A DNA stretch of 64,000 bases from Candidatus Campbellbacteria bacterium (GCA_024653945.1 JANLIT010000002.1:146508-210507), one strand, 5' to 3'; counted from the stretch's first letter, positions 6,568 through 59,238 are shown. The notes: generated by a model not told the origin, from the letters alone. A program made the numbers and translations.

Positions 6568-7143
6568 CTATTCAACAAGATATTTTTCAATCAAACGTCG
6601 GGCAACTTTATTGAGAAGTATGATAACGACAATAATAAGCGCAATGCCAACCTCAAGTCGTGGAAGAAAATGTTGTGTTGAAAAGAGAGAGGCACTGAGC
6701 ACGTATGCCAAAACCCAAATAACGGATGACCACACAAACGTGGTGATTATGTTTGCTTCAAGGAATTGCTTTATGGGAACACCAATCATTCCCATACGAA
6801 TAAGTGTTGGACGACTCAAACCGTATAGAAAACGGGTGATGAGAAGTGATTTAAATATGTGCGCATGAAAAAGATGGTCAAATTGTCCTGCTTCACGGGT
6901 AACCCATGCGCTTATTTTTTTAGAGAGCGAAAGATTGGTGCCGAGCAAGAACCACAACAAATCACCGATAAAAACTCCAAGAAGTGTTATAGCGAGAATA
7001 TCGTAAAAGTTCAAAGAACCTTGGTGTACAAGAAAGGCGGCAAGAAAAAGAGTAAGCTCACCTTCAATGAGTAGTCCAACAAAAATGAGAACGTATGCGA
7101 ATACGTGGTATGTCTGAAGATACTGAAGAAATAGTGTGTGCAT
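6568..7143 (-). CDS. DedA/SNARE-associated family membrane protein
   Basis: Multi-TM protein: GLLIEGELTLFLAAFL, LLGVFIGDLLWFLLG, FLYGLSRPTLIRMGMIGV. Start taken at the ATG at 7141-7143 because the upstream part of the ORF overlaps tRNA-Ser. Confidence 0.7.
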   Translation of the reverse strand: MHTLFLQYLQTYHVFAYVLIFVGLLIEGELTLFLAAFLVHQGSLNFYDILAITLLGVFIGDLLWFLLGTNLSLSKKISAWVTREAGQFDHLFHAHIFKSLLITRFLYGLSRPTLIRMGMIGVPIKQFLEANIITTFVWSSVIWVLAYVLSASLFSTQHFLPRLEVGIALIIVVIILLNKVARRLIEKYLVE

Positions 7144-7144
7144 C

Positions 7145-7234
7145 TGGCGGTGGGAGTGAGATTCGAACTCACGGTCCCCGTTAAGGGACACCGCATTTCA
7201 AGTGCGGCGCGTTAGACCTCTCTGCCATCCCACC
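7145..7234 (-). tRNA. tRNA-Ser (anticodon UGA)
   Basis: Acceptor GGTGGGA/TCCCACC; anticodon loop CTTGAAA; long variable arm GTCCCTTAACGGGGACC; T-arm GTGAG-TTCGAAT-CTCAC; encoded CCA. Confidence 0.85.
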
Positions 7235-7279
7235 AGTACCAAGAAGATACTAACAAAGTCCTCTTTGAGCAAGGTGTAG

Positions 7280-7756
7280 ATGTGGTACGCTATAGGTATG
7301 CAAATTCACCTTGCGTGGAAGACATTGGAATACGAACACAAACCACGGAGCTCCGATTGGTTCTGGGGACTCGGTATTATTGCGATTGCGGGAGTCATTC
7401 TTTCAATTTTTTTAGGAAATTTTCTTTTTGGTGTTGTGATTGGTGTTGGTGCGGTTGCTCTCGGCTTACATGCACTTCGCCATCCGCATATCATAGAGTG
7501 TGAGATTCAAGACAGAGGGGTGCGTATTGGTGACACCCTTTTCCCGTATCGTACGCTTGAGTCTTTTTGGATAGATGAGCGCCTCATTCCAAATCGACTT
7601 CTTCTTAAATCACAAAAAATGTTTATGCCCCACATCATTGTGCCCCTTGCTGATATTTCTACCGATGAGGTTCGCGATACTCTTTTGCAGTATCTAGACG
7701 AAGAGGAGGTGCACGAAACATTTTCTGATAGAATTGTTGAGCTCGCTGGTTTTTAG
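7280..7756 (+). CDS. Hypothetical membrane protein
   Basis: Two predicted TM helices (WFWGLGIIAIAGVILSIFLGNFLFGVVIGVGAVALGL). Acidic C-terminus. Confidence 0.5.
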   Translation: MWYAIGMQIHLAWKTLEYEHKPRSSDWFWGLGIIAIAGVILSIFLGNFLFGVVIGVGAVALGLHALRHPHIIECEIQDRGVRIGDTLFPYRTLESFWIDERLIPNRLLLKSQKMFMPHIIVPLADISTDEVRDTLLQYLDEEEVHETFSDRIVELAGF

Positions 7757-7816
7757 TGGCGCCTCGTCATCATTTTTGCTAGAGTGTGCGTGTTGGACTC
7801 TCGTGTGGAAAATTCG

Positions 7817-7969
7817 CTCCTGTATGGAGTACCATACGGAAGCTCAGTCGGACCACATATGTGCTTGAGCTCCCACGTCCTCGGACCCGAGTAAAAAAGA
7901 AAACAGGCTTTCTTTTTTACTCTCTCCTCGAACGCTTCGCTCTACGCACATGCGTGTCATCCTCTTTTC
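7817..7969 (+). repeat. Conserved noncoding leader element, copy A, directly abutting tRNA-Arg
   Basis: About 85% identical to 12688-12841 (ctcctgtatggagtaccat...gaccacatat...gagctcccacgtcctcgga...aaaagaaaacaggctttctttttt...ctctcctcgaacgct...catgcgtgtca). The reading frames of the two copies differ, so it is not protein-coding. Confidence 0.7.
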
Positions 7970-8041
7970 GCTCCCGTCGTTCAACGGATAGGACGGCAGC
8001 TTGCGGAGCTGCTGATGTAGGTTCGATTCCTACCGGGGGCA
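7970..8041 (+). tRNA. tRNA-Arg (anticodon read as GCG)
   Basis: Acceptor GCTCCCG/CGGGGGC; anticodon stem GCAGC/GCTGC with loop TTGCGGA; T-arm GTAGG-TTCGATT-CCTAC. Confidence 0.7.
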
Positions 8042-8055
8042 CACTACACAATTAT

Positions 8056-8745
8056 ATGAAATTTGAGGAATCCTCAATATCTAAAGAACAAAGGCCAAAT
8101 TCCGAGGTGTATACCAAAGAATACGAAAGAATAAAAACTTGGCTTTTAAAACTTTTTAAGGATAAAAATGAGGAAGAAATAGAGGGCCTGTATTCTGAGA
8201 TACAATTTCTTGTATCTGCTATTGGGGAGGATCCAAGTATAATAATTGAAAAAATTAAGAAAGGGTGGAACCAAGAAGATCCGGAAGAATTTGTTGCTAT
8301 AGTTTTTGGTGCCACAAAAAAATATATAGACCAAAAAATAGAACACCCAGAAATTTTTGAAGAAATACGTCGAGAAAGAAGAATACAACGATTCGGAACT
8401 ATTAAATTGAGTGAACTTATGTATTATAGCCTTGACCTTCAAAACGGTGTGGCGATTATTCACGTCGAACCAAAGGGAAATTTAGGGTTTGGCGGAATAC
8501 TAAAATCATTTCGTGATGGAATGAAAGAGCTTGCAAAACAGGCAAAAAAAGACGAAAGAATAAAAGAAATTAAAGCCATGTCTTGGATAGTTGCATCAAA
8601 CCCCGGTCTCTTAGAAAAAGCTGGTTTTATAGTTGACGGTCCAATGGATGAAAAAACGAAAGTCCAACATTTCGGCGATGAAGAAAGACCGGTTTCGGTG
8701 GCTCACATGAGTAGGGAGACGTTGTTAGAAAAATATCTTGGTTAA
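8056..8745 (+). CDS. Hypothetical protein (AT-rich, first gene of a two-gene cassette)
   Basis: 230 aa, Lys/Glu-rich. Markedly lower GC than its surroundings. Starts 15 nt after tRNA-Arg. Confidence 0.5.
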   Translation: MKFEESSISKEQRPNSEVYTKEYERIKTWLLKLFKDKNEEEIEGLYSEIQFLVSAIGEDPSIIIEKIKKGWNQEDPEEFVAIVFGATKKYIDQKIEHPEIFEEIRRERRIQRFGTIKLSELMYYSLDLQNGVAIIHVEPKGNLGFGGILKSFRDGMKELAKQAKKDERIKEIKAMSWIVASNPGLLEKAGFIVDGPMDEKTKVQHFGDEERPVSVAHMSRETLLEKYLG

Positions 8746-8770
8746 TTGGTCTCTCATATCGGCTAACTAT

Positions 8771-9082
8771 ATGGAAAGTTCTGAACAATATATTCCCGAA
8801 ATACCGCCTACTCCAGATGTGCTAACAACACGTCTTGAGCTTGAGTACCGTGGCAAGCTTCAACACAATATCCTCATAAGCATTGGCAAGAGGGCCTTTG
8901 ACTCGGACTCCGCATATGAGCACGGAAAGAAAATTTTGGATTATATAAGTGCCATTATTGACGCTGATACTCCAGAGGGGGAAGAAATTCGAGAACTTGC
9001 CCGTGCTGAAAAATATGAAGAAGCAGAGACAAAGGTCATCGCGCTTCTTGACTTGAAAAAAGTAGAACTACCCCAAGCATGA
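8771..9082 (+). CDS. Hypothetical protein (second gene of the AT-rich cassette)
   Basis: ORF 8738..9082 overlaps the upstream gene. Start chosen at the internal MESSEQYIP. Acidic 104 aa. Confidence 0.4.
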   Translation: MESSEQYIPEIPPTPDVLTTRLELEYRGKLQHNILISIGKRAFDSDSAYEHGKKILDYISAIIDADTPEGEEIRELARAEKYEEAETKVIALLDLKKVELPQA

Positions 9083-9471
9083 TTCTCGGCATTGATTACG
9101 GAACAAAACGAGTTGGGGTTGCACTCTCGGATACAAGCGAAACGCTTGCATTTCCGCGAGAGGTTTTGCAAAACACAAAGTCGCTCGTAGCCGACATTGC
9201 CGGCATTGTTGCAAAAGAAAATGCGAACATTATTGTGATCGGTCATTCAACGGATACAAAAGGTAAAGATAACCCTGTCATGATTGCAATTCAGAGTTTT
9301 AAAGAAAAACTTGAGAAGGAAATAAACGTGCCAGTTGTGTTTGAACGTGAGTGGTTTTCTTCACAGGAGGCGACACGATTTACGGGTGCAAATAGTATGA
9401 TAGATGCATCGGCTGCCGCAATTATTTTGCAGAGATTTTTAGATAGAAAGAGGGGGGCACAAAACAGATAA
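9079..9471 (+). CDS. ruvX: Putative pre-16S rRNA nuclease / Holliday junction resolvase-like YqgF
   Basis: MILGIDYGTKRVGVALSD N-terminus, RNase H-like fold size (130 aa). Confidence 0.8.
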   Translation: MILGIDYGTKRVGVALSDTSETLAFPREVLQNTKSLVADIAGIVAKENANIIVIGHSTDTKGKDNPVMIAIQSFKEKLEKEINVPVVFEREWFSSQEATRFTGANSMIDASAAAIILQRFLDRKRGAQNR

Positions 9472-9504
9472 CATGTAACTTGAAACAAAATGTGTGGAAT
9501 AATA

Positions 9505-9547
9505 GTGTTACACGTTACATGCTACGTGTTACATAATTCATAACATA
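9505..9547 (+). repeat. GTTACATG-family motif cluster ending in the start codon
   Basis: gtgttacacgttacatgctacgtgttacataattcataacatatg. Confidence 0.6.
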
Positions 9548-9885
9548 TGATTACCATCGACCAATTAAAAACCGCAGATATTCGTATCGGACAAATTCTT
9601 TCTGCAGAAGAAGTTCCCGAGACAGACAAACTCCTTAGACTTACTGTTTCTTTTGGTGAAGAGACACCACGTCAAATTATTTCTGGAATTAAACAGTACG
9701 TTGCTGATATACAAACACTCGTGGGCAAAAAAACCGCATTTGTAGTAAACCTTGAACCCCGCACCATTAAAGGACTTGAAAGCAACGGCATGTTGTTTGC
9801 TGTCTCGACGGGTGAGGGTGAAGAACGACAGTTTTCTTTCATTGTCCCCGAGAGAGACATACCGCCAGGCGCCCGTTTGGGTTAG
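9547..9885 (+). CDS. tRNA-binding domain protein (CsaA / MetRS C-terminal-like)
   Basis: DIRIGQILSAEEVPETDKLLRLTVSFGEE..RQIISGIKQY matches the tRNA_bind OB-fold consensus. Confidence 0.75.
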   Translation: MITIDQLKTADIRIGQILSAEEVPETDKLLRLTVSFGEETPRQIISGIKQYVADIQTLVGKKTAFVVNLEPRTIKGLESNGMLFAVSTGEGEERQFSFIVPERDIPPGARLG

Positions 9886-9894
9886 TATTAAGTC

Positions 9895-10995
9895 ATGACA
9901 TTTACGTCACGAGTTCTTTCTCTTTTTCCTACACCGGCGTATCTCTCCATGCTCGCCGCGGGGATTGATGTGTCTGACAACTCGGTGAAGTACATTACCT
10001 TTTCAAAAAGTCGCACACACGGAAGGCGTTTGAGTGGGTATGGGTCAATGCAAATTCCAAAAGGGGTTGTTGTTGGTGGTAAGGTTGTTGATGCAAAAAA
10101 ACTCACAGAAGTACTCTCTCTTTTTCGAGAAAAATATAAGCTACATTTTGTGCGAGCATCGCTTCCTGAAGAAGAGGGATACATTTTTCCATCATACGTT
10201 CCAACTGGTATCACCAAAAAAGAAGTACAAGAAGTTCTTGAATTTAAATTGGCGGAAAATGTGCCACTTACAGCAAGCGAGGCGGTGTTTGATTTTGATA
10301 GTGTTCGTGATGCGTCTCTTTTTGTTGGTCAGCGACTCGTGTCCGTCTCTGCGTACCCTCAAGCAATTGCTCAACAATACGCAGATTTGCTTATTGCATC
10401 TGGACTTGAACCGTTGTCTCTTGAAATAGAGGCACAGGCAATCGCTCGCGCCATTGTCCCCAAAAGTTTTGTGGGTGCATGTATGGTTGTTGATGTTGGA
10501 AGAACAAGGTCTGGAATTTCAGTTGTACGAGGACAGGCCGTTCGTTTTACAGCTACAGTAGATATCGGGGGGGACAACGTAAGTGATGTCATACTCGCAA
10601 CACTTCCCGCCACAACCGAAGAAGACATGGTGCGAATAAAAAATCAGGAAGGATTGCATTTTTCTGGAGATGCAACCATTCGTCAGGGATTTGAAACTTT
10701 TGCAAAGAGTATTGCCACGGAACTTGACCGTTATATTGTGTATTGGCAAACCCACAAGGATATTAAAGATTCTAACGTATCTCACATCCCCATTGAGAGG
10801 GTGTTTCTCTCGGGTGGTAATGCAAATATTGCAGGTCTTCCAGAGTATCTCGCGCACGCGTTACATATACCTGTTGAAATTGGAAATGTATGGACAAATG
10901 CTTTTTCATTGGATGGATATGTTCCAGAAATACCATTCAATGATTCGCTTGGATATGCGTCCGCAATAGGACTTGCGCTTCACGAGCACGAGTAG
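9895..10995 (+). CDS. pilM: Type IV pilus assembly protein PilM (actin-like ATPase fold)
   Basis: 366 aa. CMVVDVGRTRSGISVV and VDIGGDNVSDVI are characteristic of PilM/FtsA-like proteins. Followed by pilN/pilO-like genes. Confidence 0.75.
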   Translation: MTFTSRVLSLFPTPAYLSMLAAGIDVSDNSVKYITFSKSRTHGRRLSGYGSMQIPKGVVVGGKVVDAKKLTEVLSLFREKYKLHFVRASLPEEEGYIFPSYVPTGITKKEVQEVLEFKLAENVPLTASEAVFDFDSVRDASLFVGQRLVSVSAYPQAIAQQYADLLIASGLEPLSLEIEAQAIARAIVPKSFVGACMVVDVGRTRSGISVVRGQAVRFTATVDIGGDNVSDVILATLPATTEEDMVRIKNQEGLHFSGDATIRQGFETFAKSIATELDRYIVYWQTHKDIKDSNVSHIPIERVFLSGGNANIAGLPEYLAHALHIPVEIGNVWTNAFSLDGYVPEIPFNDSLGYASAIGLALHEHE

Positions 10996-11059
10996 CACAT
11001 GACAGAATTATCCCACTTTTGATTATCTTTGAGGGAGAAGTGCGCGGTATACTAGAGGT

Positions 11060-11707
11060 GTGGTTAATTTGCTTCCAATAAAAAATCAACACATCGTTGC
11101 GTGGGAGCGTCGCGGGAGGGCTCTCCTTGTCGTTTTGATATTTGCTATTTGTTCATTGATTCTTTTGATATTTTTTCTTGCGCCGTCGCTCATTCTCGCA
11201 CGGTCTGCGGTAGGTGGATTTACAGACCAATTGGTTGCCACAAAAACACTTGTTGATTTACAACGGCGACAAAGTGGTACAGAAGTGTTGACAGACATAC
11301 AAACGCGCTCTGACCTCTTGAAAGATGTGTTATCACAGAGATCTTTGACGTCAATTCTTCAAGAGGTGATGCCACGAATTCCAAATGGGGTTTCTCTTCA
11401 ACAAATAACATACAGTACTCAAAAAAAAGAGATATCAGTAACACTTAAAGGAATTGCACAAACACGAAATGCATTGACGTCTCTCGGCGATTCGTTGCGT
11501 TCATCTCCACTATTCTCACGCGTTGATATTCCTGTTTCAAGTTTGGCACGAAGTGTAGATATTGATTTTACTGTAACACTTTTGTTGGAGATGGCAGGAG
11601 ACGTTGTTGAATACGCGGGGACACCAAGAACGAACGTGCCGTTGCCTGAAATGGGCACAGGGACATCAGCGACAACAGGTGCGCTGATAGAAAAAATAAC
11701 ACCATGA
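11060..11707 (+). CDS. pilN: PilN-like pilus assembly protein
   Basis: MVNLLPIKNQHIVAWERRGRALLVVLIFAICSLILLIFF: N-terminal LLP motif plus a single TM, typical of PilN. Confidence 0.6.
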   Translation: MVNLLPIKNQHIVAWERRGRALLVVLIFAICSLILLIFFLAPSLILARSAVGGFTDQLVATKTLVDLQRRQSGTEVLTDIQTRSDLLKDVLSQRSLTSILQEVMPRIPNGVSLQQITYSTQKKEISVTLKGIAQTRNALTSLGDSLRSSPLFSRVDIPVSSLARSVDIDFTVTLLLEMAGDVVEYAGTPRTNVPLPEMGTGTSATTGALIEKITP

Positions 11708-12258
11708 AAAAGGTAACAGAAAAAACGAAACGACGGTACGCTGTGTTTGTGTTTGCCCTTCTTGCGGTAGGTCTTGTTGGTGCATATGTGTGGGCCATTC
11801 TTTTGACCAATCAATACCACAATCAAATCATTCTTACACAAGAAGAACTACTTGTTCAGGTTGAACGCGAACGACGGGTTCGTGACACAGCGGGGGTGAT
11901 TGCTAGTCTCAAAGAAGAGCGTGAAGTTGTAAAAACTTTTTTTAAAACTCCTGACGACGTGATTTCTATTATTGAAGAAATTGAGGGGTTTGGTCGCACC
12001 ATTGGAGCCCTGGTGTCTGTTGTGCAGGTTCAGGTAGATGATGAGGACCCAAAGACGCGTGAAGGAACGTTTGTGGTGAGTATTTTTTCAACAGGTTCGT
12101 GGAAAAAAATGATGAACCTTATAGGACTGCTTGATTCGCTTCCGTATCAAGCAAAAGCAAGCCAAATAACTCTCGACACATCTCAAAAAGAGGGAGGGTC
12201 TACTACCGTTTTACCATGGACCGTTCGAGCGTCGTTATCTATAGTACTTAAAAAATAA
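11704..12258 (+). CDS. pilO: PilO-like pilus assembly protein
   Basis: Single N-terminal TM helix then a coiled-coil region. Translationally coupled to pilN (ATGA overlap). Confidence 0.5.
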   Translation: MKKVTEKTKRRYAVFVFALLAVGLVGAYVWAILLTNQYHNQIILTQEELLVQVERERRVRDTAGVIASLKEEREVVKTFFKTPDDVISIIEEIEGFGRTIGALVSVVQVQVDDEDPKTREGTFVVSIFSTGSWKKMMNLIGLLDSLPYQAKASQITLDTSQKEGGSTTVLPWTVRASLSIVLKK

Positions 12259-12260
12259 GT

Positions 12261-12578
12261 ATGTCATCACTTCAGACAGTTTGGTTATACATAAAGAAAA
12301 AAGCGCATACGTTTTTTGTTGCACAAACAGCCGCGGGTCTCTGGGTCCGACTTCTGTGTGTTGTAATAGTATTGAACATTTTTGGAATCACACTCTCGCT
12401 TATTTTCTTTTCTCGGATACAAAACATGAATCAATCAATCATTGTGCCAGTTGAGGTTGAACAGGCGGATGATGTTGACCGAGCGAGCGTACAAAAAACC
12501 CTCGAGGCTTTTTCTCGTCGTGTGGTTGAATTTGAATACAGAAAAACAAATGGCGTTTCTATTCCAGAGCCGAAGTAA
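12261..12578 (+). CDS. Hypothetical membrane protein (possible PilP-like)
   Basis: 105 aa with one TM helix. Last gene of the pilMNO operon. Confidence 0.4.
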   Translation: MSSLQTVWLYIKKKAHTFFVAQTAAGLWVRLLCVVIVLNIFGITLSLIFFSRIQNMNQSIIVPVEVEQADDVDRASVQKTLEAFSRRVVEFEYRKTNGVSIPEPK

Positions 12579-12687
12579 ACAGAAAATAGTAGCTAGTATG
12601 TGGAGGTTGGTATGTTGGGGTATTAAAATTTTCATAAAAAGTTTGTGAAGGTAAAAGGGAAGTTTTTGTGATAGGGTAGGCGTGTCC

Positions 12688-12841
12688 CTCCTGTATGGAG
12701 TACCATGCGGGAGGTCACTCGGACCACATATAAGCTCGAGCTCCCACGTCCTCGGAATCGAACAAAAAAGAAAACAGGCTTTCTTTTTTGTTCTCTCCTC
12801 GAACGCTACGCTCTATGACTCATGCGTGTCACCCTCATTTT
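12688..12841 (+). repeat. Conserved noncoding leader element, copy B, abutting tRNA-Arg(UCU)
   Basis: About 85% identity to 7817-7969. Confidence 0.7.
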
Positions 12842-12913
12842 CCTCCCGTAGTTTAATGGATAAAACAGGAGACTTCTAAGCTCTTAATGTAGGTTCGATT
12901 CCTGCCGGGAGGA
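12842..12913 (+). tRNA. tRNA-Arg (anticodon UCU)
   Basis: Acceptor CCTCCCG/CGGGAGG; anticodon loop CTTCTAA; T-arm GTAGG-TTCGATT-CCTGC. Paralogous to the tRNA-Arg at 7970. Confidence 0.75.
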
Positions 12914-12963
12914 CAAGAAAAAGAAGAAGACAGGCAGAAAAAAATATGTATAATTGGTCAGTC

Positions 12964-13036
12964 GGGCGCTTAGCTCAGTTGGTAGAGCAACTCTTTTACA
13001 CAGAGAAGGTCGGGGGTTCGAATCCCTCAGCGCCCA
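12964..13036 (+). tRNA. tRNA-Val (anticodon UAC)
   Basis: GGGCGCT-TA-GCTCAGTTGGTAGAGC; anticodon loop TTTACAC; T-arm GGGGG-TTCGAAT-CCCTC; acceptor AGCGCCC-A. Confidence 0.85.
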
Positions 13037-13168
13037 CAAAACAGTGCCTCCGCTACGTATGTAGTGGAGGTTTATGTTTTGTAGAGGCGGTGGGGATTCG
13101 AAGGTCAGAGACAGACGTGTCGAGACGGGGTCGCGGAACTTTTCAACAGAAAAGTATCCGTGACCGAA

Positions 13169-13190
13169 TCCCTCAGCGCCCACCAAAAAC
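13169..13190 (+). other. Duplicated 3' end of tRNA-Val with encoded CCA (tRNA fragment or att-like remnant)
   Basis: cgaatccctcagcgcccacca repeats the last ~19 nt of tRNA-Val 130 nt downstream. No complete cloverleaf can be formed there. Confidence 0.6.
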
Positions 13191-13256
13191 ACCCGAGAGG
13201 GTGTTTTTCTATTTTGGGTATATTAACTTTTTATCTTTAAGGGTCATACTAGGGTC

Positions 13257-13526
13257 ATGAACGAGATAGAGGCAGTTGTAATAGGTAAGGTTCAAAATGT
13301 TGGATTTCGAGAGTTCGTCTCACGACATGCCAACGCACTGTGGCTTCAGGGTTTTGTGCAGAACCAAGGTGTTGGCGAATTGAGGGTGGTTGCGCAAGGG
13401 CCAGAAGATAAACTGGAGCGACTCATAGAACACTTGCACAAAGGTCCGTTTCTTGCACACGTTCGTGATGTACAGGTACTATGGAGAGAACCAACAGAAC
13501 AGTTTACAGAGTTTTCTATAGTGTAA
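13257..13526 (+). CDS. acyP: Acylphosphatase
   Basis: VIGKVQNVGFREFV...GFVQNQGVGELRVVAQG matches the acylphosphatase signatures. 89 aa. Confidence 0.8.
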   Translation: MNEIEAVVIGKVQNVGFREFVSRHANALWLQGFVQNQGVGELRVVAQGPEDKLERLIEHLHKGPFLAHVRDVQVLWREPTEQFTEFSIV

Positions 13527-13629
13527 ACTGTAAGCACGAATACCGAATTACAAAAATCGAAACAAGTACGAATATCTTGAATTTCAAAAACAGTTTTTCG
13601 AATTTCGATATTCATATTTCGAATTTACT

Positions 13630-14355
13630 ATGAATATAAAAATTCTCTACGAAGACGATGATGTTGTGTTTATCAACAAGCCCTCTGGTGTGATGGTGCA
13701 CGAAGACGGGCGCGGAAAAGGTCAAACGCTGGTGGATTGGGTTATTGAACACTATCCCGACAGCGCGACGGTGGGTGAGCCACAAATGCTTTCTAACGGC
13801 ATGATGGTAGACCGTCCAGGAATTGTGCATCGTCTTGATGCTGACACATCGGGTGTGCTTGTGATTGCAAAAACAGAAGATGCGTTTGTGCATCTCAAGT
13901 GTGTGTTTCAGGAACGAGAGGCAACAAAAGTGTATCGAGCATTTGTGTACGGAAGCGTGAAAAAAGATACAGATGTCATCAACCGTCCGATTGGAAAAAG
14001 TAGAACTGACCCGCGCCTATGGTCAGCACAGAGAGGAGCTCGAGGTGTAATGCGTGATGCAATTACACACTACGATGTACTGCAGCGGGGAACAGAACAT
14101 TCATACCTTGAACTACGCCCAAAAACAGGACGAACGCACCAAATCCGCGTGCACCTCAAAGCAATCAATCATCCGGTCATTTGTGACCGTTTATACGCAC
14201 CCAAACAAGAAGCAGCGCTCGGCTTTGAACGCCTCGCACTTCATGCATGCTCACTCTCGCTCATGCTTCCATCGGGAACAATCAAGACCGTTGAGGCGCC
14301 CCTTCCTCCTGATTTTGTTCGTGCAGAAAAAATTCTCAAAAAAGAGGGTAAATAG
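13630..14355 (+). CDS. RluA-family pseudouridine synthase
   Basis: HRLDADTSGVLVIAKT (catalytic Asp) and TGRTHQIRVHL motifs. Confidence 0.85.
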   Translation: MNIKILYEDDDVVFINKPSGVMVHEDGRGKGQTLVDWVIEHYPDSATVGEPQMLSNGMMVDRPGIVHRLDADTSGVLVIAKTEDAFVHLKCVFQEREATKVYRAFVYGSVKKDTDVINRPIGKSRTDPRLWSAQRGARGVMRDAITHYDVLQRGTEHSYLELRPKTGRTHQIRVHLKAINHPVICDRLYAPKQEAALGFERLALHACSLSLMLPSGTIKTVEAPLPPDFVRAEKILKKEGK

Positions 14356-15012: not shown

Positions 15013-15096
15013 TGCGCAGGAGAGGATTTGAACCTCCAAGCCCTTGCGGGCGCTACCACCTCAAGGTAGTGCGTCTACCAATTTCGCCACCTGCGC
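15013..15096 (-). tRNA. tRNA-Leu (anticodon GAG)
   Basis: Acceptor GCGCAGG/CCTGCGC; 3-bp D-stem; anticodon loop TTGAGGT; long variable arm; T-arm GGAGG-TTCAAAT-CCTCT. Confidence 0.85.
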
Positions 15097-15171
15097 GGTG
15101 AGGGCAGTATAAACTAAAGTTGAAAAACAGGGAAGAGAACACAGATTTTGGTTCGGTGCTATTCTACATAT

Positions 15172-16254
15172 ATGCGAGAGACATTTCATAGAGTAAAAGA
15201 TTACTTAGAGCGACACGAACGTCCACTGTCGGCGGTCGCGCTTGTGTTTGGTTTTGTGATGGATTCACTCACACTGAGTCGTATTGATCTTCTCTCAAAC
15301 CAACTCGTTCTTTTTATATATCTCTGTATTGTTGGTTTTTGTATTATTATTCTTGCGTTGCAAGAAACACGAATTGCTGGCCACCCCGTTCTTTTGTGGG
15401 CAGTAACAATAGCACCACTCATCATGCAGATTGTGTTCGGTGGTTTATTCAGTGCGCTTGTTGTTTTTTATTCTCGAAGTGCATCTTTTTCGGCAAGTTG
15501 GCCATTCATTTTGTTTCTTATTGGAATGCTTATCGGTAATGAAACATTTCGTGCGCGATATGAGCGAATGGTGTTTCGTGTGAGTATTTTTTTCATTGCA
15601 CTCCTTTCATTCAGTGTTCTGATTGTTCCTGTGGTTCTTCACTCAATTGGAGTTCTTCCATTTCTACTTAGTGTGTCTGTCAGTATTATTCTTGTGTACT
15701 GTTTTATTTTACTGCTCACTTTTTTTTCTCGAGAGCATGTATACGAAGTTCGACACGTGCTCATGCAGAGTATTGGCATCATTACCATTGTGTACATGAT
15801 TGCCTATATCACCAATATTATTCCTCCTGTGCCACTGGCACTTAAAGATTTTGCCGTAGCACACAGCGTTGTACGTGTTGACGATGGATACCGACTTTCA
15901 GTTGAGCCACATTCACTTTCTGATTACTTCCAATTGTCTGAAATCTACCACAGAACACCTGGTGAGCCGGTGTATATATGGACATCGGTGTTTGCACCAA
16001 CGAAGCTTTCCACGGCAATCGTTCATAACTGGCAGTATAAAGAAGGAAATTCGTGGAAGACGGCAAGCAGAATTTCATTTCCAATTACCGGAGGCAGTGA
16101 TGGGGGATACCGAGGATATTCTATGAAAGAAAATCTGGGAGCGGGTGCGTGGCGCGTGTCTGTGGAAACATCTCGTGGTCAAGTCATTGGACGTGTACGT
16201 TTTGATATTGTTGATGTTGGTGCAACGCAACCCCAACAACTTATTGAGAAATAA
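15172..16254 (+). CDS. Hypothetical polytopic membrane protein with C-terminal extracytoplasmic domain
   Basis: About 7 TM helices followed by a ~130-aa soluble domain. Start at MRETFHRV. Confidence 0.5.
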   Translation: MRETFHRVKDYLERHERPLSAVALVFGFVMDSLTLSRIDLLSNQLVLFIYLCIVGFCIIILALQETRIAGHPVLLWAVTIAPLIMQIVFGGLFSALVVFYSRSASFSASWPFILFLIGMLIGNETFRARYERMVFRVSIFFIALLSFSVLIVPVVLHSIGVLPFLLSVSVSIILVYCFILLLTFFSREHVYEVRHVLMQSIGIITIVYMIAYITNIIPPVPLALKDFAVAHSVVRVDDGYRLSVEPHSLSDYFQLSEIYHRTPGEPVYIWTSVFAPTKLSTAIVHNWQYKEGNSWKTASRISFPITGGSDGGYRGYSMKENLGAGAWRVSVETSRGQVIGRVRFDIVDVGATQPQQLIEK

Positions 16255-16347
16255 TTTTTTTTGTCGCTTTACTGAAGGTTTTTTGGTACAGTATCCCCAC
16301 AACTTGTCTTGAGCGAGCCAGAGCCCGTCCTCGGCGAGTCGAAATAT

Positions 16348-17170: not shown

Positions 17171-17274
17171 ATAAGGCTTTAAAAAGGGGCTCGTGGGGGA
17201 ATGGGGTCAGACCCCTTTTCCTCATTAGTTCCAGCTCGAGATAGCCACCCCCAAATAGTGGAAGTTAGTGGTTA

Positions 17275-17294
17275 CCTGCCTGCCGGCAGGCAGG
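17275..17294. repeat. REP-like perfect 20-nt palindrome CCTGCCTGCCGGCAGGCAGG (copy 1 of 4)
   Basis: Flanked by ggaagttagtgg / gggatgttggaagttgg. The other copies are at 20019, 57524 and 59219. Confidence 0.75.
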
Positions 17295-17363
17295 GATGTT
17301 GGAAGTTGGTGATTTGTCCAAGTACTCTAATTGTAGTTTGAACTGGTATACTTTTGGTATGGT

Positions 17364-18053
17364 ATGGAAGAGCGTTCACACAAAACAAAAACAATTCTCA
17401 TTACGGGAATAGGCAAAGGAATTGGGAAGGCGCTTGCGCAAAAATTTCTCGCGGAAGGAAACCGTGTTATTGGTACAGCACTAACGGGTGCCGTTGATTT
17501 TTCTGATCCAAACCTCTCCGTGTTTCATCTAGATATACGAAGTGAAGAAAGTATAGAGAAATGCGTTGCAGACATTAAAAATACAGGGCATACGATAGAT
17601 ATTCTCATTAATAACATCGGCGTGCTTCTTGATGAAGACGAGACGGTAGTTGTTATGGACAAACTGCGAGGAACGTTAGAAGTAAATCTTATCGGCACGA
17701 TTGGTTTTACTGAAAAAGCCATTTCTCTTTTGTCTGAGGGAGCCCATCTTCTAACCATCACCTCCTCGGCTGGCTCAATCACTCAAGTAGCGACCGAGAG
17801 TCATTTTCCTGGACACTATCCTGCATACAAAATTTCAAAGGCCGCTCTCAATATGTATGTCAAAACACTTTCAGAGAGGTTGAAAGGGAAGGCGATTGTT
17901 TCTGCAGTTCATCCTGGGTGGGTAAAGACCGACATGGGTGGACAAGAGGCCGATGTAACACCGGAAGATGCCGCTGATGGAATCTATACTCTTGCCCTCT
18001 CTCAACCTGAAACAGGACACTTTTGGTTTAGAGACAAAGAATTGCCGTGGTAA
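17364..18053 (+). CDS. Short-chain dehydrogenase/reductase (SDR) family oxidoreductase
   Basis: ILITGIGKGIGKALA Rossmann motif; NNIG; YPAYKISKAA (YxxxK catalytic pair). Confidence 0.8.
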   Translation: MEERSHKTKTILITGIGKGIGKALAQKFLAEGNRVIGTALTGAVDFSDPNLSVFHLDIRSEESIEKCVADIKNTGHTIDILINNIGVLLDEDETVVVMDKLRGTLEVNLIGTIGFTEKAISLLSEGAHLLTITSSAGSITQVATESHFPGHYPAYKISKAALNMYVKTLSERLKGKAIVSAVHPGWVKTDMGGQEADVTPEDAADGIYTLALSQPETGHFWFRDKELPW

Positions 18054-18544
18054 GTACTTCTGATATGGAAATAAGAAAACCCGTTTTAAATAAAGGTATT
18101 CTGAAAAAGAAAACTTTTACGAATATTTCCGTGACGGAACTTGAGGGTGTTTTTATTGTTGGTGGTTCTTTAGAAAATCAGAATATTGAAGATATAAAAA
18201 TTGATACCAGCGCCCTAGAAGACATCTCCTTTCAATCCTCAAAAGTAAAAGATATACAATGTATTGATTCAACCCTCACAGGTGCTAACTTTGCCGGAGC
18301 TTCCTTTGAACAAACTTATTTTGAAAGAGTTTTAATAACAAAAAGTCGTTTCCAAGGGACACAGTTTATGGGGTGTGTTGTCCGTGATGTGATGATTGAG
18401 AAATCAAAGTGTGCAGATGTATCATTTAGGTTTGCAAAAATAAAAGATGTGGTTTTTCTTGGTTGTGATTTAGAAAATGCCGACTTCATGGGGGCTAGTA
18501 TGGAGAATGTTGTGTTTAAGGATTGCAGTCTTAGGAATTCATAA
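18047..18544 (+). CDS. Pentapeptide-repeat protein (interrupted by in-frame TAA at 18542-18544)
   Basis: Tandem A(D/N)LxG-type repeats. After the TAA the same frame continues for 49 more repeat-like codons (FSQTKLKNISFKDADIEG...) to a TAG at 18692. Confidence 0.65.
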   Translation: MVSTSDMEIRKPVLNKGILKKKTFTNISVTELEGVFIVGGSLENQNIEDIKIDTSALEDISFQSSKVKDIQCIDSTLTGANFAGASFEQTYFERVLITKSRFQGTQFMGCVVRDVMIEKSKCADVSFRFAKIKDVVFLGCDLENADFMGASMENVVFKDCSLRNS

Positions 18545-20018: not shown

Positions 20019-20038
20019 CCTGCCTGCCGGCAGGCGGG
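20019..20038. repeat. REP-like palindrome, degenerate copy (cctgcctgccggcaggcggg)
   Basis: One mismatch relative to the 20-nt consensus. Confidence 0.6.
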
Positions 20039-35531: not shown

Positions 35532-36743
35532 ATGCGTTTGAAGTACAAAGCGGTAGCGGCTACAGGTGAAGTCTACGAAAAAATTACGGACGCGGAAGAT
35601 TCATTTGCGCTTGCCAAACAACTCACCGAAGAAGGTGAAACCCTTGTTGTTGCGACCGAAATAAAAGAAAAGGTATGGTATCAGCGATTTAATATTGACT
35701 TCGGAGGTGGTATTAAAATTACAGAGAAGATTACGTTTGCAAAAAATCTTGCAGCAATGGTTGATGCGGGTCTTACAATATCGCGAGGTATCGCAATTAT
35801 GGAACGACAATCAGGAAGTAGAAAGTTTCGTGAAGTACTCTCTCTTATTGGTGCAGAAATTCAAAAAGGAACACCTGTTTCAGCTGCGTTTGCAAAATTT
35901 CCAAAAGTATTTACAACGCTTTTTGTTGCCATGGTTCGTGCTGGAGAAGAATCGGGGAAGCTTGGAGAGGCACTACGTATTACCGCCGAACAGATGGATA
36001 GAAGTTTTGCACTCCGCCGTCGTATTCGTGGTGCGATGATGTATCCAGCCGTTATTATGTCGCTCATGGTGGTTATTGGTATTCTCATGCTCATGTATGT
36101 TGTTCCGACACTGACGACTACCTTTAAAGAATTAAAAGTTGACTTACCAGCAAGCACCCAGTTTATTATTACCATTTCGGACGGACTCGCAAATCATCCA
36201 ATACTCTATATTGGAGGACTCATACTTTTTGTTGTGTTGTGTATGCAGGCACTCCGAACTACTACGGGAAAGCGTCTGTTTGAACGTGCCATCATGCATT
36301 TGCCGGTTATTAAAACACTTGTGCAACAAACAAACTCTGCGCGTATGGCACGAACGTTCGCTTCACTCCTCTCGTCTGGTGTTGAAATTGTGTCAGGTAT
36401 CGGTATTACGAGTGATGTGCTACAGAACTCTTTTTACAAAGCGGTCTTAAAAGAAGCAGAAACAGAAATTCAAAAAGGAACACAACTTTCTGTTGTTTTT
36501 GCGCGGTATCCAAAGTTATATCCGCCCATGGTGACCGAAATGGTTGCTGTTGGAGAAGAAACGGGAAAACTACCGGACATGTTTCTCCAAATTGCGACAT
36601 TCCTTGAAACAGAAGTTGACCAGAAAACAAAAGACATGTCCACGATTATTGAGCCACTCCTGATGGTGGTTATTGGTGCGGCTGTTGGGTTTTTTGCCGT
36701 ATCAATGATTACACCAATTTACTCGCTTTCATCAAGTATTTAG
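35532..36743 (+). CDS. pilC: Type IV pilus inner-membrane platform protein PilC (GspF family)
   Basis: Two T2SSF repeats, 3 TM, 403 aa. Confidence 0.85.
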   Translation: MRLKYKAVAATGEVYEKITDAEDSFALAKQLTEEGETLVVATEIKEKVWYQRFNIDFGGGIKITEKITFAKNLAAMVDAGLTISRGIAIMERQSGSRKFREVLSLIGAEIQKGTPVSAAFAKFPKVFTTLFVAMVRAGEESGKLGEALRITAEQMDRSFALRRRIRGAMMYPAVIMSLMVVIGILMLMYVVPTLTTTFKELKVDLPASTQFIITISDGLANHPILYIGGLILFVVLCMQALRTTTGKRLFERAIMHLPVIKTLVQQTNSARMARTFASLLSSGVEIVSGIGITSDVLQNSFYKAVLKEAETEIQKGTQLSVVFARYPKLYPPMVTEMVAVGEETGKLPDMFLQIATFLETEVDQKTKDMSTIIEPLLMVVIGAAVGFFAVSMITPIYSLSSSI

Positions 36744-36752
36744 GACAAGAGA

Positions 36753-36850
36753 CATGAAACATGTAACAGGAAACATGTACCATGAAGCATAAAACAAATA
36801 ACAAAACACAAGAATCAAATTGTTACATGGTACATGCTACACGACACATG
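36753..36850 (+). repeat. GTTACATG/CATGTAAC motif cluster spanning the pseudopilin start codon
   Basis: catgaaacatgtaacaggaaacatgtaccatg...ttgttacatggtacatgctacacgacacatg. Confidence 0.6.
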
Positions 36851-38623
36851 AATGCTGGGTTCACCCTTGTGGAGACAGTGGTCGCATCCACGATATTTCT
36901 TCTCATTGCAGTGAGTTTGTATCAAGCATACACAACACTTTTTCGTGTCATTAATTCATCGCGTGTCAATCTTGTCGCATCATCCCTCGCGACTGAACAG
37001 TTTGAAATTATACGCAACATGCCGTACGCAAAAGTTGGTGTTGCCGGAAGTATTCCTTCGGGCCTTGTTCCTCATACCCAAACACTCATACGTGATGGAT
37101 TTACATTTACCGTGACAACGATTGTGCGAAATATTGATAACCCGTTTGACGGCACGCTTGGGGGAACACCCAATGACACGGCTCCAGCTGACTATAAGCT
37201 TGTGGAGACAGAAATTGCATGTGACACGTGCAGAGACTTTCCACCAAAGATATTTACAACACACGTTAGTCCAAAAAACCTTGAGCTCGCCTCAACAAAT
37301 GGTGCACTCTTTGTTCGTGTTTTTGACGCGAATGGTGTGCCGGTACAAGGTGCTGATGTGCGTGTAGAAAATAATCAAATCGTGCCGTCTATTCGCATAG
37401 ATGACGTTACCGATACCAATGGAAACTTGCAACTTGTTGATATTCCGCCAGGCGCGGGGGCGTATGAAGTATACGTGAGTAAAGACGGATACTCTTCAGA
37501 CCAAACATATACCGCCACAGTGAGCAACCCAAATCCAACGACGCCGTATGCAACGGTTGCCCAACAGCAGGTTACCCAAATTAGTTTTTCTATAGACAAG
37601 GTAAGTTCGTTGTCTATTACCAGCGTTACGCAAACATGTGAAGCAGTTGCCGGTGTTGGTATTGATATACAAGGCAGTAAGCTTATAGGCACAAGTCCTG
37701 ATGTAAATAAATACTCTCAATCGCATACAACGAACGGGTTGGGAGAAAAAGTAATAAATGATTTAGAGTGGGATACCTACTCACTTTCGGTGAGTGGTAG
37801 TACATACCAACTTCTCGGTCTTATTCCACTTCTTCCTCCAACAATTGCACCCGACTCCAATCTTGATGTACAAGTGGTTGTTGGCCCACTTAATCCAAAC
37901 GCACTACTGGTAACTGTTAAAGACAGTGCAACAGCACTACCTATATCCGAGGCAGATGTTGCGATTACGGGGGAAGAGACGCAAACAACAGGGCGAGGAT
38001 TTTTGCGACAAACGGATTGGTCGGGCGGGTCTGGTGAAACGGTGTGGTCTGGTGGTTCTCGATATAGTTCAGATGATGGAAACATTGAAACCGATACGCC
38101 GGCGGGTGTTATGGAGTTGGTATTGTTTGCGGGATCGTACACTCCATCGGGTGATCTCACATCGTCAATATTTGATGTCGGAACAACAAGTAATTTTTAT
38201 AGAATTACGTGGCAACCAGAGGATCAGCCACCGCTTGCGGGCGCAGACCCTGTTCGTTTTCAGATTGCAACAAGTAATGATGTGGCGACAACGACATGGA
38301 ATTTTCTCGGACCAGATGCAACGAATGGTAGTTACTATACTGTTGCAGACCAAAATATTAATGTGGTCCACAATGCACAGCAATATTTTCGATACAAAGT
38401 TTTCTTAGAAACCGAGGATGTGTCCGTTACACCAACTATTTCAGACGTTTCGTTCACGTTTACCTCAGAGTGTGTTCCACCAGGTCAAGTTACATTTTCA
38501 GGACTTTCAAGTGGTTCGTATACTGTTTCTGTGTCAAAATCGGGATATCAACCATACACAAGTGCTCCACTATCAGTAACGAGCAATTTTATATCATATG
38601 AAGCGATTCTTACCCCAGAATGA
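36827..38623 (+). CDS. Prepilin-type N-terminal cleavage/methylation domain protein (large minor pilin/pseudopilin)
   Basis: Leader MVHATRHMNAG|FTLVETVVASTIFLLIAV (class III signal), then ~570 aa of beta-rich repeats. Start ambiguous (36782, 36827 or 36848). Confidence 0.7.
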   Translation: MVHATRHMNAGFTLVETVVASTIFLLIAVSLYQAYTTLFRVINSSRVNLVASSLATEQFEIIRNMPYAKVGVAGSIPSGLVPHTQTLIRDGFTFTVTTIVRNIDNPFDGTLGGTPNDTAPADYKLVETEIACDTCRDFPPKIFTTHVSPKNLELASTNGALFVRVFDANGVPVQGADVRVENNQIVPSIRIDDVTDTNGNLQLVDIPPGAGAYEVYVSKDGYSSDQTYTATVSNPNPTTPYATVAQQQVTQISFSIDKVSSLSITSVTQTCEAVAGVGIDIQGSKLIGTSPDVNKYSQSHTTNGLGEKVINDLEWDTYSLSVSGSTYQLLGLIPLLPPTIAPDSNLDVQVVVGPLNPNALLVTVKDSATALPISEADVAITGEETQTTGRGFLRQTDWSGGSGETVWSGGSRYSSDDGNIETDTPAGVMELVLFAGSYTPSGDLTSSIFDVGTTSNFYRITWQPEDQPPLAGADPVRFQIATSNDVATTTWNFLGPDATNGSYYTVADQNINVVHNAQQYFRYKVFLETEDVSVTPTISDVSFTFTSECVPPGQVTFSGLSSGSYTVSVSKSGYQPYTSAPLSVTSNFISYEAILTPE

Positions 38624-57523: not shown

Positions 57524-57543
57524 CCTGCCTGCCGGCAGGCAGG
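57524..57543. repeat. REP-like 20-nt palindrome (copy 3), followed by a T-run
   Basis: cctgcctgccggcaggcagg then gatttttt. Confidence 0.75.
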
Positions 57544-59218: not shown

Positions 59219-59238
59219 CCTGCCTGCCGGCAGGCAGG
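59219..59238. repeat. REP-like 20-nt palindrome (copy 4, inverted flank orientation relative to copy 1)
   Basis: ccaacatcc-cctgcctgccggcaggcagg-taacttccaac. Confidence 0.75.

Follow-up and report, generated by a model that had tools for sequence, protein, structure and literature searches.

A structured, variably present insertion abutting tRNA-Arg genes in Candidatus Campbellbacteria and related CPR genomes

Introduction

Structured, nonautonomous repeats are well known from miniature inverted-repeat transposable elements (MITEs), repetitive extragenic palindromes (REP/REPIN), Correia elements, and Rickettsia palindromic elements (RPEs). Palindrome-associated transposable elements (PATEs) of the IS200/IS605 type have subterminal hairpins at both ends, insert 3′ of a short target, and are accompanied by a TnpA (Y1 HUH) in the genome. 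In phage T4, SegB is a free-standing homing endonuclease cassette in the tRNA region, and noncoding RNAs matured by tRNA enzymes, or mimicking tRNAs, include MALAT1/mascRNA, tRNA-linked small RNAs, and viral tRNA-like structures. Integrative elements that target tRNA genes leave tRNA fragments behind in archaea (PMC3293823, PMC9897764), and group I introns occur in tRNA genes of Patescibacteria (PMC13011429). Here we describe a sequence of about 154 nucleotides (nt), the Arg element, that occurs twice in a 64,000-nt stretch of a Candidatus Campbellbacteria bacterium (GCA_024653945.1, JANLIT010000002.1:146508-210507; hereafter the window), each time directly 5′ of a tRNA-Arg gene. We compared the window with syntenic loci from the candidate phyla radiation (CPR, or Patescibacteria). 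Neither Rfam nor the literature that we searched contained a description of such elements, the nearest being the Patescibacteria group I introns and the tRNA fragments of integrating elements.

Results

An insertion at the 5′ end of tRNA-Arg genes

Copy 1 of the element occupies positions 7816 to 7969 (+ strand; 154 nt) and copy 2 positions 12687 to 12841 (+; 155 nt). They adjoin the 5′ ends of tRNA-Arg(GCG) (7970 to 8042, +; gcg) and tRNA-Arg(UCU) (12842 to 12914, +; tct), both intact and both called by ARAGORN and Rfam, with a spacer of 0 in either case. A first-pass annotation of this DNA had pointed to a duplicated leader of about 150 nt, noncoding, in front of these two genes, and the duplication is real: the elements are 86% identical (134/155) and the tRNAs 77% (56/73), and the copies are direct repeats spaced by 4,871 nt, in line with the 4.9 kb given there. 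Their alignment starts one base earlier than annotated, with G in one copy and C in the other. Identity in the 60-nt flanks on either side of the copies is at background level (43 to 55%), and these flanks cannot be aligned. Three blocks of 16 to 19 nt within the element each occur exactly twice in the window; in shuffles, the two 19-mers gave means of 0.00 and 0.02 matches and the 16-mer a mean of 0.28, with two matches reached in 7 of 100 shuffles. No reading frame is open across all nine homologues, and the open frame shifts between them, so that a protein-coding reading was rejected and the description of the block as noncoding stands.

We fetched 26 syntenic CPR loci (given L numbers below), using PilM (33 to 60% identity) and the protein encoded upstream of copy 1 at 7280 to 7756 (the neighboring protein; 87% down to 58% identity to that of the window). 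The neighboring protein of the window is identical to an NCBI entry from a metagenome-assembled Candidatus Campbellbacteria genome, which places the organism in the CPR. L018 and L019 have the same sequence as L017, and L021 the same as L020; the sample amounts to about ten lineages from one clade. All loci keep the gene order tRNA-Ser, a 152-amino-acid (aa) gene, tRNA-Arg(GCG), ruvX, a gene for a tRNA-binding-domain protein, pilMNO, and tRNA-Arg(UCU)/tRNA-Val. The two tRNA-Arg genes are therefore old paralogues rather than a recent duplicate. The same synteny is found in relatives that lack one or both copies, so the bracketing of ruvX and pilMNO by the copies, to which the first-pass annotation had drawn attention, is incidental, and a composite transposon around ruvX-pilMNO was rejected.

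Copy 1 was aligned with eight other distinct copies, and a covariance model built from these nine (R1) was used to search the window and the 26 loci, 330 kb in total. Every match lay directly 5′ of a tRNA-Arg gene and in the orientation of that tRNA. Twelve matches were full length at 145 to 180 bits (copy 1, 178.8 bits; copy 2, 161.7 bits); the others were a decayed copy of 50 bits upstream of tRNA-Arg(UCU) in L025 and a copy in L026 cut by the contig end. No R1 copy was found at Lys, Ser, Val, Leu, or His tRNAs or elsewhere in the 330 kb. The element is thus linked strictly to tRNA-Arg(GCG) or tRNA-Arg(UCU). At tRNA-Arg(GCG), it is present in the window, L016, L008, L017, L020, L015, L022, L024, and L026, and the search of related genomes proposed in the first-pass annotation accordingly found it in about nine lineages and missing from others. 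Empty tRNA-Arg(GCG) sites have no leader: the tRNA starts 8 nt past a TGnTAnAGT motif in L001 and L023 and 10 nt past it in L010 and L013. L009, L011, L012, and L014 share the neighboring protein and the short gap of L010/L013 and gave no R1 match, and the site is likewise empty in L025 and L027. At tRNA-Arg(UCU), only the window and L025 carry a copy among the loci compared; in L017 this tRNA follows TGgTAGGGT after 6 nt, with no element between.

The comparison of L026 (filled) with L025 and L027 (empty) is the closest. These loci encode an identical neighboring protein (P0014), their upstream flanks differ at 1 base, and the start of the L026 element coincides exactly with the tRNA start of the other two (...gtgcccac, followed by GCTCTCGT). 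The block is therefore an insertion relative to empty orthologous sites and is polymorphic between close strains. Beyond these loci, an exact 19-mer scan of Joint Genome Institute (JGI) metagenomes gave one match, by chance, in a high-GC contig without a tRNA; scans of viral contigs with three patterns gave nothing or chance matches in GC-rich coding DNA; and BLAST found no match in phages and, in plasmids, matched the A/T hairpin of the element alone.

A conserved fold

Both copies fold far more stably than their shuffles, with z-scores of −6.1 (copy 1) and −4.1 (copy 2). In the consensus from the nine-sequence alignment, a first helix of about 12 bp with an NNUA tetraloop (P1) precedes an irregular hairpin, 113 nt long and built from five helices (helices 2 to 6; 7850 to 7962, +, in copy 1 and 12721 to 12834, +, in copy 2). 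The 46 pairs of this fold are standard in 94% of alignment cells, compared to 41 to 56% when the partner is slid by 1 to 3 columns, and 19 pairs are changed on both sides, compared to 2 to 6; helices 2 to 6 account for both-side changes in 17 of 36 pairs. None of 500 shuffles reached the observed number of paired cells, of pairs or cells changed on both sides, or the covariation score. The count of further pair types was not above that of shuffles (464/500). A U·G wobble in helix 3 is invariant in all nine copies; G·U and A·C exceptions are otherwise about equally frequent, and it is mainly because of this wobble, the fixed orientation, and the promoter context that we read the fold as one of RNA rather than DNA. 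CAGUCGG, UCCC, CUCG, and CCUC are invariant unpaired motifs.

Three local dyads had been proposed within the repeat, and the fold retains one of them. The A/U-rich aaaagaaa-acaggc-tttctttt is a real local hairpin, forming the apex of helix 6 and of the whole long hairpin (7889 to 7922 in copy 1; 12760 to 12793 in copy 2). The dyad cacatatgtg is not conserved in copy 2, and in the covariation-supported fold this stretch pairs with a distant 3′ partner; nor is agctcgagct/agcttgagct a local hairpin, the GAGC of agcttgagct again pairing with a distant 3′ partner. The data support a structured, noncoding sequence with a conserved six-helix fold in the position of a tRNA 5′ leader. The suggestion of a structured pre-tRNA leader was right to that extent, and it missed the insertion, the mimicry of the host tRNA, the exchange independent of flanks, and the kinship with other elements of these genomes that mimic tRNA ends, all described below. 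Both conservation in relatives and compensatory changes, whose absence would have counted against it, were found.

The proposed Rfam/Infernal search of the copies returned tRNAs alone: Rfam 15 had no other match in window positions 7000 to 14000 at an E value of ≤10, and the whole window at the gathering score and L009 at an E value of ≤1 likewise gave only tRNA matches. T-box leaders, with their specifier and T-box motifs, lie upstream of aminoacyl-tRNA synthetase or amino acid biosynthesis or transport genes; the Arg element lies upstream of a tRNA and was not matched by the T-box model.

A first hairpin resembling the host acceptor stem

P1 spans 7816 to 7843 (+) in copy 1, as GCUCCUGUAUGG-AGUA-CCAUACGGAAGC (12 bp), and 12687 to 12714 (+) in copy 2, as CCUCCUGUAUGG-AGUA-CCAUGCGGGAGG. 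Its 5′ strand repeats nt 1 to 8 of the adjoining tRNA, its 3′ strand resembles the acceptor 3′ strand of the same tRNA, and at about 12 bp it is as long as a minihelix, in which the acceptor and T stems of a tRNA are stacked. The resemblance lies in the lower 7 bp, which read GCUCCUG/CGGAAGC beside an acceptor stem of GCUCCCG/CGGGGGC at the GCG site of the window and CCUCCUG/CGGGAGG beside CCUCCCG/CGGGAGG at its UCU site. In the relatives, the lower stem and host acceptor are GCUCUUG/CGAAAGC and GCUCUCG/CGAGGGC (L016), CCUCUCG/CGAGAGG and GCUCUCG/CGAGAGC (L017), GCUCUCG/CGAGAGG and GCUCUCG/CGAGAGC (L022 and L024), and ACUCCUG/CAGAAGC and GCUCCCG/CGGGGGC (L015); in L026, where the contig ends before the tRNA, they are GCUCUCG/CGAGAGU and GCUCUCG.

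At pair 5, which is C-G or U-A, P1 agrees with the host tRNA wherever it is readable, in nine copies. The L016 element is 97% identical to that of the window, and two of the few differences form pair 5, switched along with its tRNA. The upper stem (UAUGG/CCAUA) is specific to the element and has its own compensatory change in L022 (UAUCG/CGAUA). The comparison shows a first hairpin that follows the host acceptor stem, apparently derived from the acceptor end and kept matched to it. In L022 and L024 the bottom position of P1 is G·G, as if a GCG-type 5′ strand had been joined to a partner strand that stems from a UCU-type context.

With the tRNA start, the P1 5′ strand makes an 8-nt repeat that flanks the element (GCTCYYGT/GCTCYCGT), imperfect at position 6 in 5 of 10 readable copies (both window copies, L008, L015, and L016). 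A target-site duplication, or insertion at +1 of an element carrying its own copy, would explain this repeat equally well. Either process would set the 5′ strand locally, and selection on an RNA hairpin, as protection of the 5′ end or as a processing handle, could keep the partner strand complementary. The sequences would allow a riboswitch-like exchange of strands between P1 and the acceptor stem. In all nine copies, P1 plus tRNA is predicted to be the more stable arrangement, by 3 to 12 kcal/mol (the strand indexing behind these energies is shifted by one column in L017 and L020). No thermodynamic switch is therefore predicted, and we rejected this reading.

Promoter context and exchange between lineages

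An extended −10-like element, TGcTAGAGT, lies upstream of copy 1 (7777 to 7785, +), and TGaTAGGGT (12669 to 12677, +) lies 9 nt before copy 2, to be compared with TGgTAGGGT in L017; the promoter function of both is read from their sequence. A simple −35/−10 scan does not have the first of these in its list. TGnTAnAGT or TGnTAGGGT is kept upstream of filled and empty tRNA-Arg sites alike: the tRNA starts 6 to 10 nt past it at empty sites, and at filled ones P1, or what is left of an older P1 half, starts 6 to 12 nt past it. No separate promoter or terminator signal stands out within the element. The idea of a conserved promoter block is therefore not supported, since the promoter-like element sits upstream of the repeat and persists where the repeat is missing. 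Given this position, the tRNA promoter should also drive transcription of the Arg element, as a long 5′ leader. RNase P, whose cleavage at tRNA +1 is established tRNA biology, would then detach the leader, so that the element would hitchhike on tRNA expression and processing and leave the tRNA intact.

Divergence of the element does not track that of its surroundings. L016 is close to L008 in the neighboring protein (96%, with the element at 88%) and closer to the window in the element (97%, with the protein at 87%); L015 has 61% protein and 80% element identity to L024 and 75% and 67%, respectively, to the window. The phylogenies of the element and the flanking gene disagree, and lineages appear to gain, lose, replace, and exchange the element regardless of the genes that flank it. 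What we interpret as a remnant of an earlier P1 5′ half (CTCTCGTGTGG; 7798 to 7808, +) lies 12 nt past the −10 element of copy 1, about where the tRNA starts in empty sites (8 to 10 nt from the −10 element). Comparable half-P1 remnants precede the current P1 in L008 (TTCGTATG), L015 (TCCTGTATG), and L017 (GCTCTCGTATCG) and suggest repeated insertion or replacement at the same site. Discordant phylogenies, remnants, a decayed copy, and the HNH gene at the equivalent junction of tRNA-Ser in L020 (see below) are together what selfish DNA would be expected to produce. ComEC and type IV pilus genes are encoded in the window, which makes exchange by DNA uptake and recombination plausible.

Elements at other tRNA genes and further features of the loci

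Many tRNA genes in these loci, tRNA-Arg genes among them, carry related but distinct insertions. At 3′ ends, an exact 17- to 23-nt copy of the tRNA 3′ end, starting from the T-loop, lies 92 to 231 nt past the real end, and the intervening segment resembles the acceptor 5′ and T-stem 5′ strands of the same tRNA (in L008 it retains a T-stem G·U). This segment pairs with the distal tRNA-end copy and closes a two-hairpin module. In the window, such an element of 146 nt follows tRNA-Val(UAC) (13038 to 13183, +), with a terminator-like hairpin (13046 to 13071), an acceptor-5′/T-stem-5′-like segment (about 13085 to 13104), a two-hairpin module that contains GGGGTCGCGGAAC...CCGTGACCGA, and the last 19 nt of the tRNA repeated exactly (13165 to 13183); a second terminator-like hairpin comes after it (13185 to 13208). 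Others are found in L005 at Arg, Val, and Leu tRNAs (12481 to 12619, 13918 to 14148, and 17220 to 17377), L009 at two Arg tRNAs and one Leu tRNA (10572 to 10731; 15029 to 15173, −; 18085 to 18228, −), L008 (10618 to 10743), L017 (10745 to 10930), and L024 (about 1326 to 1506, −, Ser). A 160-nt 3′-end element is polymorphic between L012 (828 to 987, filled) and L010 and L013 (6545 and 799, empty), whose flanks are identical. The 3′-end inserts form one family or several. The Arg(UCU) 3′-end copy of L009 differs from that of L010 by an internal 52-nt replacement, and in L009 (a GTDB scaffold) positions 10770 to 10867 contain a run of N and, after it, the 3′ end of tRNA-Arg with its flank for a third time, which looks like a scaffolding artifact at the polymorphic insertion site.

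A mirror-image arrangement exists 5′ of tRNA-Ser(UGA) in L001, L009 to L014, and L015 (8172 to 8281 in L001, 9828 to 9937 in L009, and 2798 to 2890 in L015, all −). Here the first 18 nt of the tRNA are repeated in a promoter-proximal position. A stretch of about 92 nt, in which the acceptor 3′ strand is also copied, separates them from the full tRNA, and the predicted minimum-energy fold takes the upstream copy as the acceptor strand. The tRNA-Ser site of the window (7235 to 7250, −) is empty, the tRNA starting where the 18-nt copy sits elsewhere. Neither the 3′-end nor the tRNA-Ser 5′ elements matched Rfam. A direct repeat of the tRNA end flanking an insert next to an intact tRNA, as at attachment (att) sites, is clear in the 3′ elements (17 to 23 nt) and the tRNA-Ser 5′ elements (18 nt) and weak in the Arg element (8 nt).

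Protein-coding cassettes are also found at tRNA 5′ ends. In L020, an HNH endonuclease gene (7897 to 8355, −; Pfam HNH/HNH_3 above threshold) lies between the extended −10 element and tRNA-Ser +1. In L008, an open reading frame (ORF) of 105 codons (15966 to 16280) abuts and reads into tRNA-Arg(UCU); it has a CxxC...DHxN...CxxCH motif and no Pfam HNH match. Judging by position, both HNH cassettes occupy the same niche as the noncoding elements. The only kilobase-scale island flanked by tRNA-end repeats was at tRNA-His in L005 (17468 to 18866), which is 1.3 kb long and AT rich, has a 47-nt flanking repeat (anticodon stem to 3′ end), and contains one ORF for a 371-aa membrane protein and no integrase.

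Several further features of the loci were noted. The order and strand of tRNA-Arg(UCU) and tRNA-Val vary: Arg precedes Val on the + strand in the window (12842 to 13037) and L017, Val precedes Arg on the − strand in L009 (15174 to 15345) and L001 (12666 to 12840), and the two abut in L020 (2076 to 2222). A single inversion does not explain these changes, and inverted tRNA-end copies within elements might mediate them. Every relative examined has GCG rather than ACG as the anticodon of the CGN-decoding tRNA-Arg at the 7970 to 8042 locus; should these genomes carry no ACG isoacceptor elsewhere, there would be no A34-to-inosine editing for Arg codons. Directly after tRNA-Arg(GCG), the window carries an AT-rich cassette of two ORFs (8056 to 9082; 229 and 114 aa, no Pfam matches). 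Relatives have different genes at this site, including one for a DUF5652 protein, ORFs of 321 to 331 aa, and a ruvX fragment in L016; gene content differs in every relative, which marks a variable islet, and no tRNA-end repeat was found at the far side of the cassette. Tandem 14-nt units akin to GTTACATGCTACAT occur in three intergenic regions (1777 to 1850, 9491 to 9550, and 36740 to 36851), one of these arrays sitting immediately before the tRNA-binding-domain gene (9547). A GC-rich perfect palindrome, CCTGCCTGCCGGCAGGCAGG, occurs four times in intergenic DNA (17275 to 17294, 20019 to 20038, 57524 to 57543, and 59219 to 59238) and could be a REP-like or terminator-like element.

Discussion

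The Arg element lacks, or shows only weakly, the defining features of each of the nearest known systems. Like integrative elements that target tRNA genes and their cis-mobilizable element (CIME) remnants, it lies at a tRNA end, is polymorphic between strains, and accompanies an intact tRNA with a partial direct copy, and the 3′ elements described above have the classical repeat of 17 to 23 nt from T-loop to 3′ end. Unlike them, it sits at the 5′ end, is about 154 nt long with a covarying fold, and has an 8-nt repeat that is folded into a hairpin with a partner resembling the acceptor 3′ strand; a parent element or integrase was not found, nor was a tyrosine or serine recombinase among the approximately 60 ORFs of the window. 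It shares with MITEs, REP sequences, Correia elements, and RPEs a small size, lack of coding capacity, hairpin formation, variable presence, possibly a short target duplication, and probably transcription with its neighbors. However, it is not dispersed (one or two copies per 20 to 64 kb examined, at tRNA-Arg +1 only), it has a fixed orientation and an end hairpin that adapts to the host tRNA, and it is without clear terminal inverted repeats. The only inverted relation between its ends is that of the 7-nt P1 3′ strand to tRNA nt 1 to 7, and neither a parent nor a transposase was found in the window. As for IS200/IS605 PATEs, the left-end hairpin beside a fixed target is compatible, and TnpA was not seen among the window ORFs.

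Homing endonuclease cassettes, including T4 SegB and the HNH cassettes of L020 and L008, resemble the Arg element in their variable presence, in the niche between promoter and tRNA +1, and in a probable dependence on tRNA-promoter read-through and RNase P; the element differs in encoding no protein and has no sequence in common with the L020 and L008 cassettes. Patescibacteria group I introns are structured selfish RNAs in tRNA genes of the same phylum, as the Arg element may be, and their first helix likewise pairs tRNA sequence with an internal complement. The Arg element, in contrast, leaves the tRNA uninterrupted, lies at +1 rather than in the anticodon loop, matches no intron model, and is too short. 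With RNAs of the MALAT1/mascRNA type it would share a 3′ end set by a downstream tRNA through RNase P, and its 12-bp 5′ hairpin has minihelix length; unlike them, it mimics the adjacent tRNA and appears to be mobile.

Our preferred explanation, to which we give about an even chance, is that the Arg element is a nonautonomous, RNA-structured mobile element specialized for the promoter-to-+1 junction of tRNA-Arg, using the tRNA promoter and RNase P. We infer that it is chiefly a selfish element and not one on which the host depends. It may spread at the level of DNA, inserting at the tRNA 5′ end or replacing what is there, mobilized in trans or by recombination after DNA uptake; compatible routes would be site-specific or microhomology-mediated insertion via the 8-nt repeat, hairpin-guided transposition of single-stranded DNA, and gene conversion of the homing type, started by a break at the 5′ end of the tRNA. 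Several observations weigh against this explanation. Among the ORFs of the window we found no gene for a transposase, integrase, reverse transcriptase, or HNH protein, and we found no autonomous version, excised form, or copy outside tRNA-Arg. Loss via short repeats together with homologous exchange could by themselves give the pattern of presence and absence. In a sample from one clade, several of the pair 5 agreements may share ancestry. In several pairs of loci the element is better conserved than the neighboring protein gene, which fits a host function too, as do the invariant unpaired motifs, and the proposed transcription and RNase P release are deduced from the DNA.

A host function is the main rival, one that we regard as possible but somewhat unlikely: the element would be a useful tRNA-Arg leader or cotranscribed small RNA spread by recombination, with P1 and the conserved hairpin modulating how the downstream tRNA matures, for instance through competition for RNase P or RNase Z, or titrating a factor specific to the acceptor stem of tRNA-Arg, or with the excised RNA acting in trans. 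Its restriction to the two Arg isoacceptors, its strong conservation of structure and sequence beyond that of the neighboring gene, with invariant unpaired motifs, and a P1 that tracks the host acceptor stem would all be expected of such a leader, and ComEC and type IV pili make allele exchange by transformation plausible. Yet the element is dispensable, as close strains and whole lineages are without it at one or both Arg genes; the 50-bit copy of L025 has decayed, remnants mark replaced copies, analogous elements stand at unrelated tRNAs and HNH cassettes in the same niche, and the strand-swapped fold is the less stable one. We think it quite improbable that the element is an inert scar, namely a fused attL/attR remnant (CIME-like) of a larger integrative element at the tRNA-Arg 5′ end. 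Integration that regenerates the tRNA and leaves a partial copy, including 5′ fragments in archaea, is well known (PMC3293823, PMC9897764), L005 has its integrase-less tRNA-His island with 47-nt repeats, and the 3′ elements carry repeats typical of att sites. However, an inert sequence would not be expected to keep 46 pairs, 19 of them doubly compensated, across lineages whose neighboring proteins are down to about 60% identical; moreover, the repeat is just 8 nt and imperfect, no integrase was found among the window ORFs, and phage, plasmid, and viral collections gave no matches.

More improbable still is a degenerate or novel intron-like element, spliced now or once, in which P1 would represent a copy of the 5′ exon (tRNA nt 1 to 8) with an internal guide. 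A group I core (P3 to P9 with a G-binding site) would not fit into 154 nt, and beyond P1 the fold consists of a single long hairpin, with no such catalytic core; the downstream tRNA is complete and needs no splicing, and no intron family, Intron_gpI included, matched at an E value of ≤10. P1 does have an exon/guide geometry, with a U·G at position 6 that is present in 5 of 9 copies and thus not conserved. Also in its favor, the best fold of the tRNA-Ser 5′ elements uses the upstream repeat as acceptor strand, and Patescibacteria tRNA genes commonly contain group I introns (PMC13011429). Finally, the presence of two copies 4.9 kb apart in one genome might suggest a recent, functionless segmental duplication of leader and tRNA. 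We give this almost no credence and count it as refuted by the shared synteny of two ancient tRNA-Arg paralogues in all relatives, by homologues of the element in at least eight other lineages, and by covariation, the differences between the window copies being compensatory.

A broader proposal, which we consider unlikely though of interest, is that the Arg, tRNA-Ser 5′, and tRNA 3′-end elements form one undescribed class of mobile, RNA-structured CPR elements that home to tRNA ends by means of a minihelix mimic. Each element would carry a minihelix-like copy of the acceptor region of its host tRNA, and this mimic would guide targeting or processing by base pairing or through RNase P, RNase Z, or the CCA-adding enzyme. 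If true, such tRNA-end homing would be unlike that of integrases, DDE transposons, or introns, and if targeting is guided by base pairing, the element could be a programmable insertion system.

The element explains odd spacing, partial tRNA copies, and assembly gaps near tRNA genes in CPR metagenome assemblies and offers strain-level markers. A hairpin that tracks the acceptor stem is also a natural experiment on what may lie upstream of a tRNA and still be tolerated by tRNA-processing enzymes. Should the Arg element be a mobile RNA that depends on tRNA promoters and RNase P, it would contribute a family of structured RNAs that Rfam does not contain and represent a new niche for bacterial selfish elements. 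Tiny as CPR genomes are, and regarded as streamlined, the tRNA genes in the loci compared here bear several kinds of small structured inserts.

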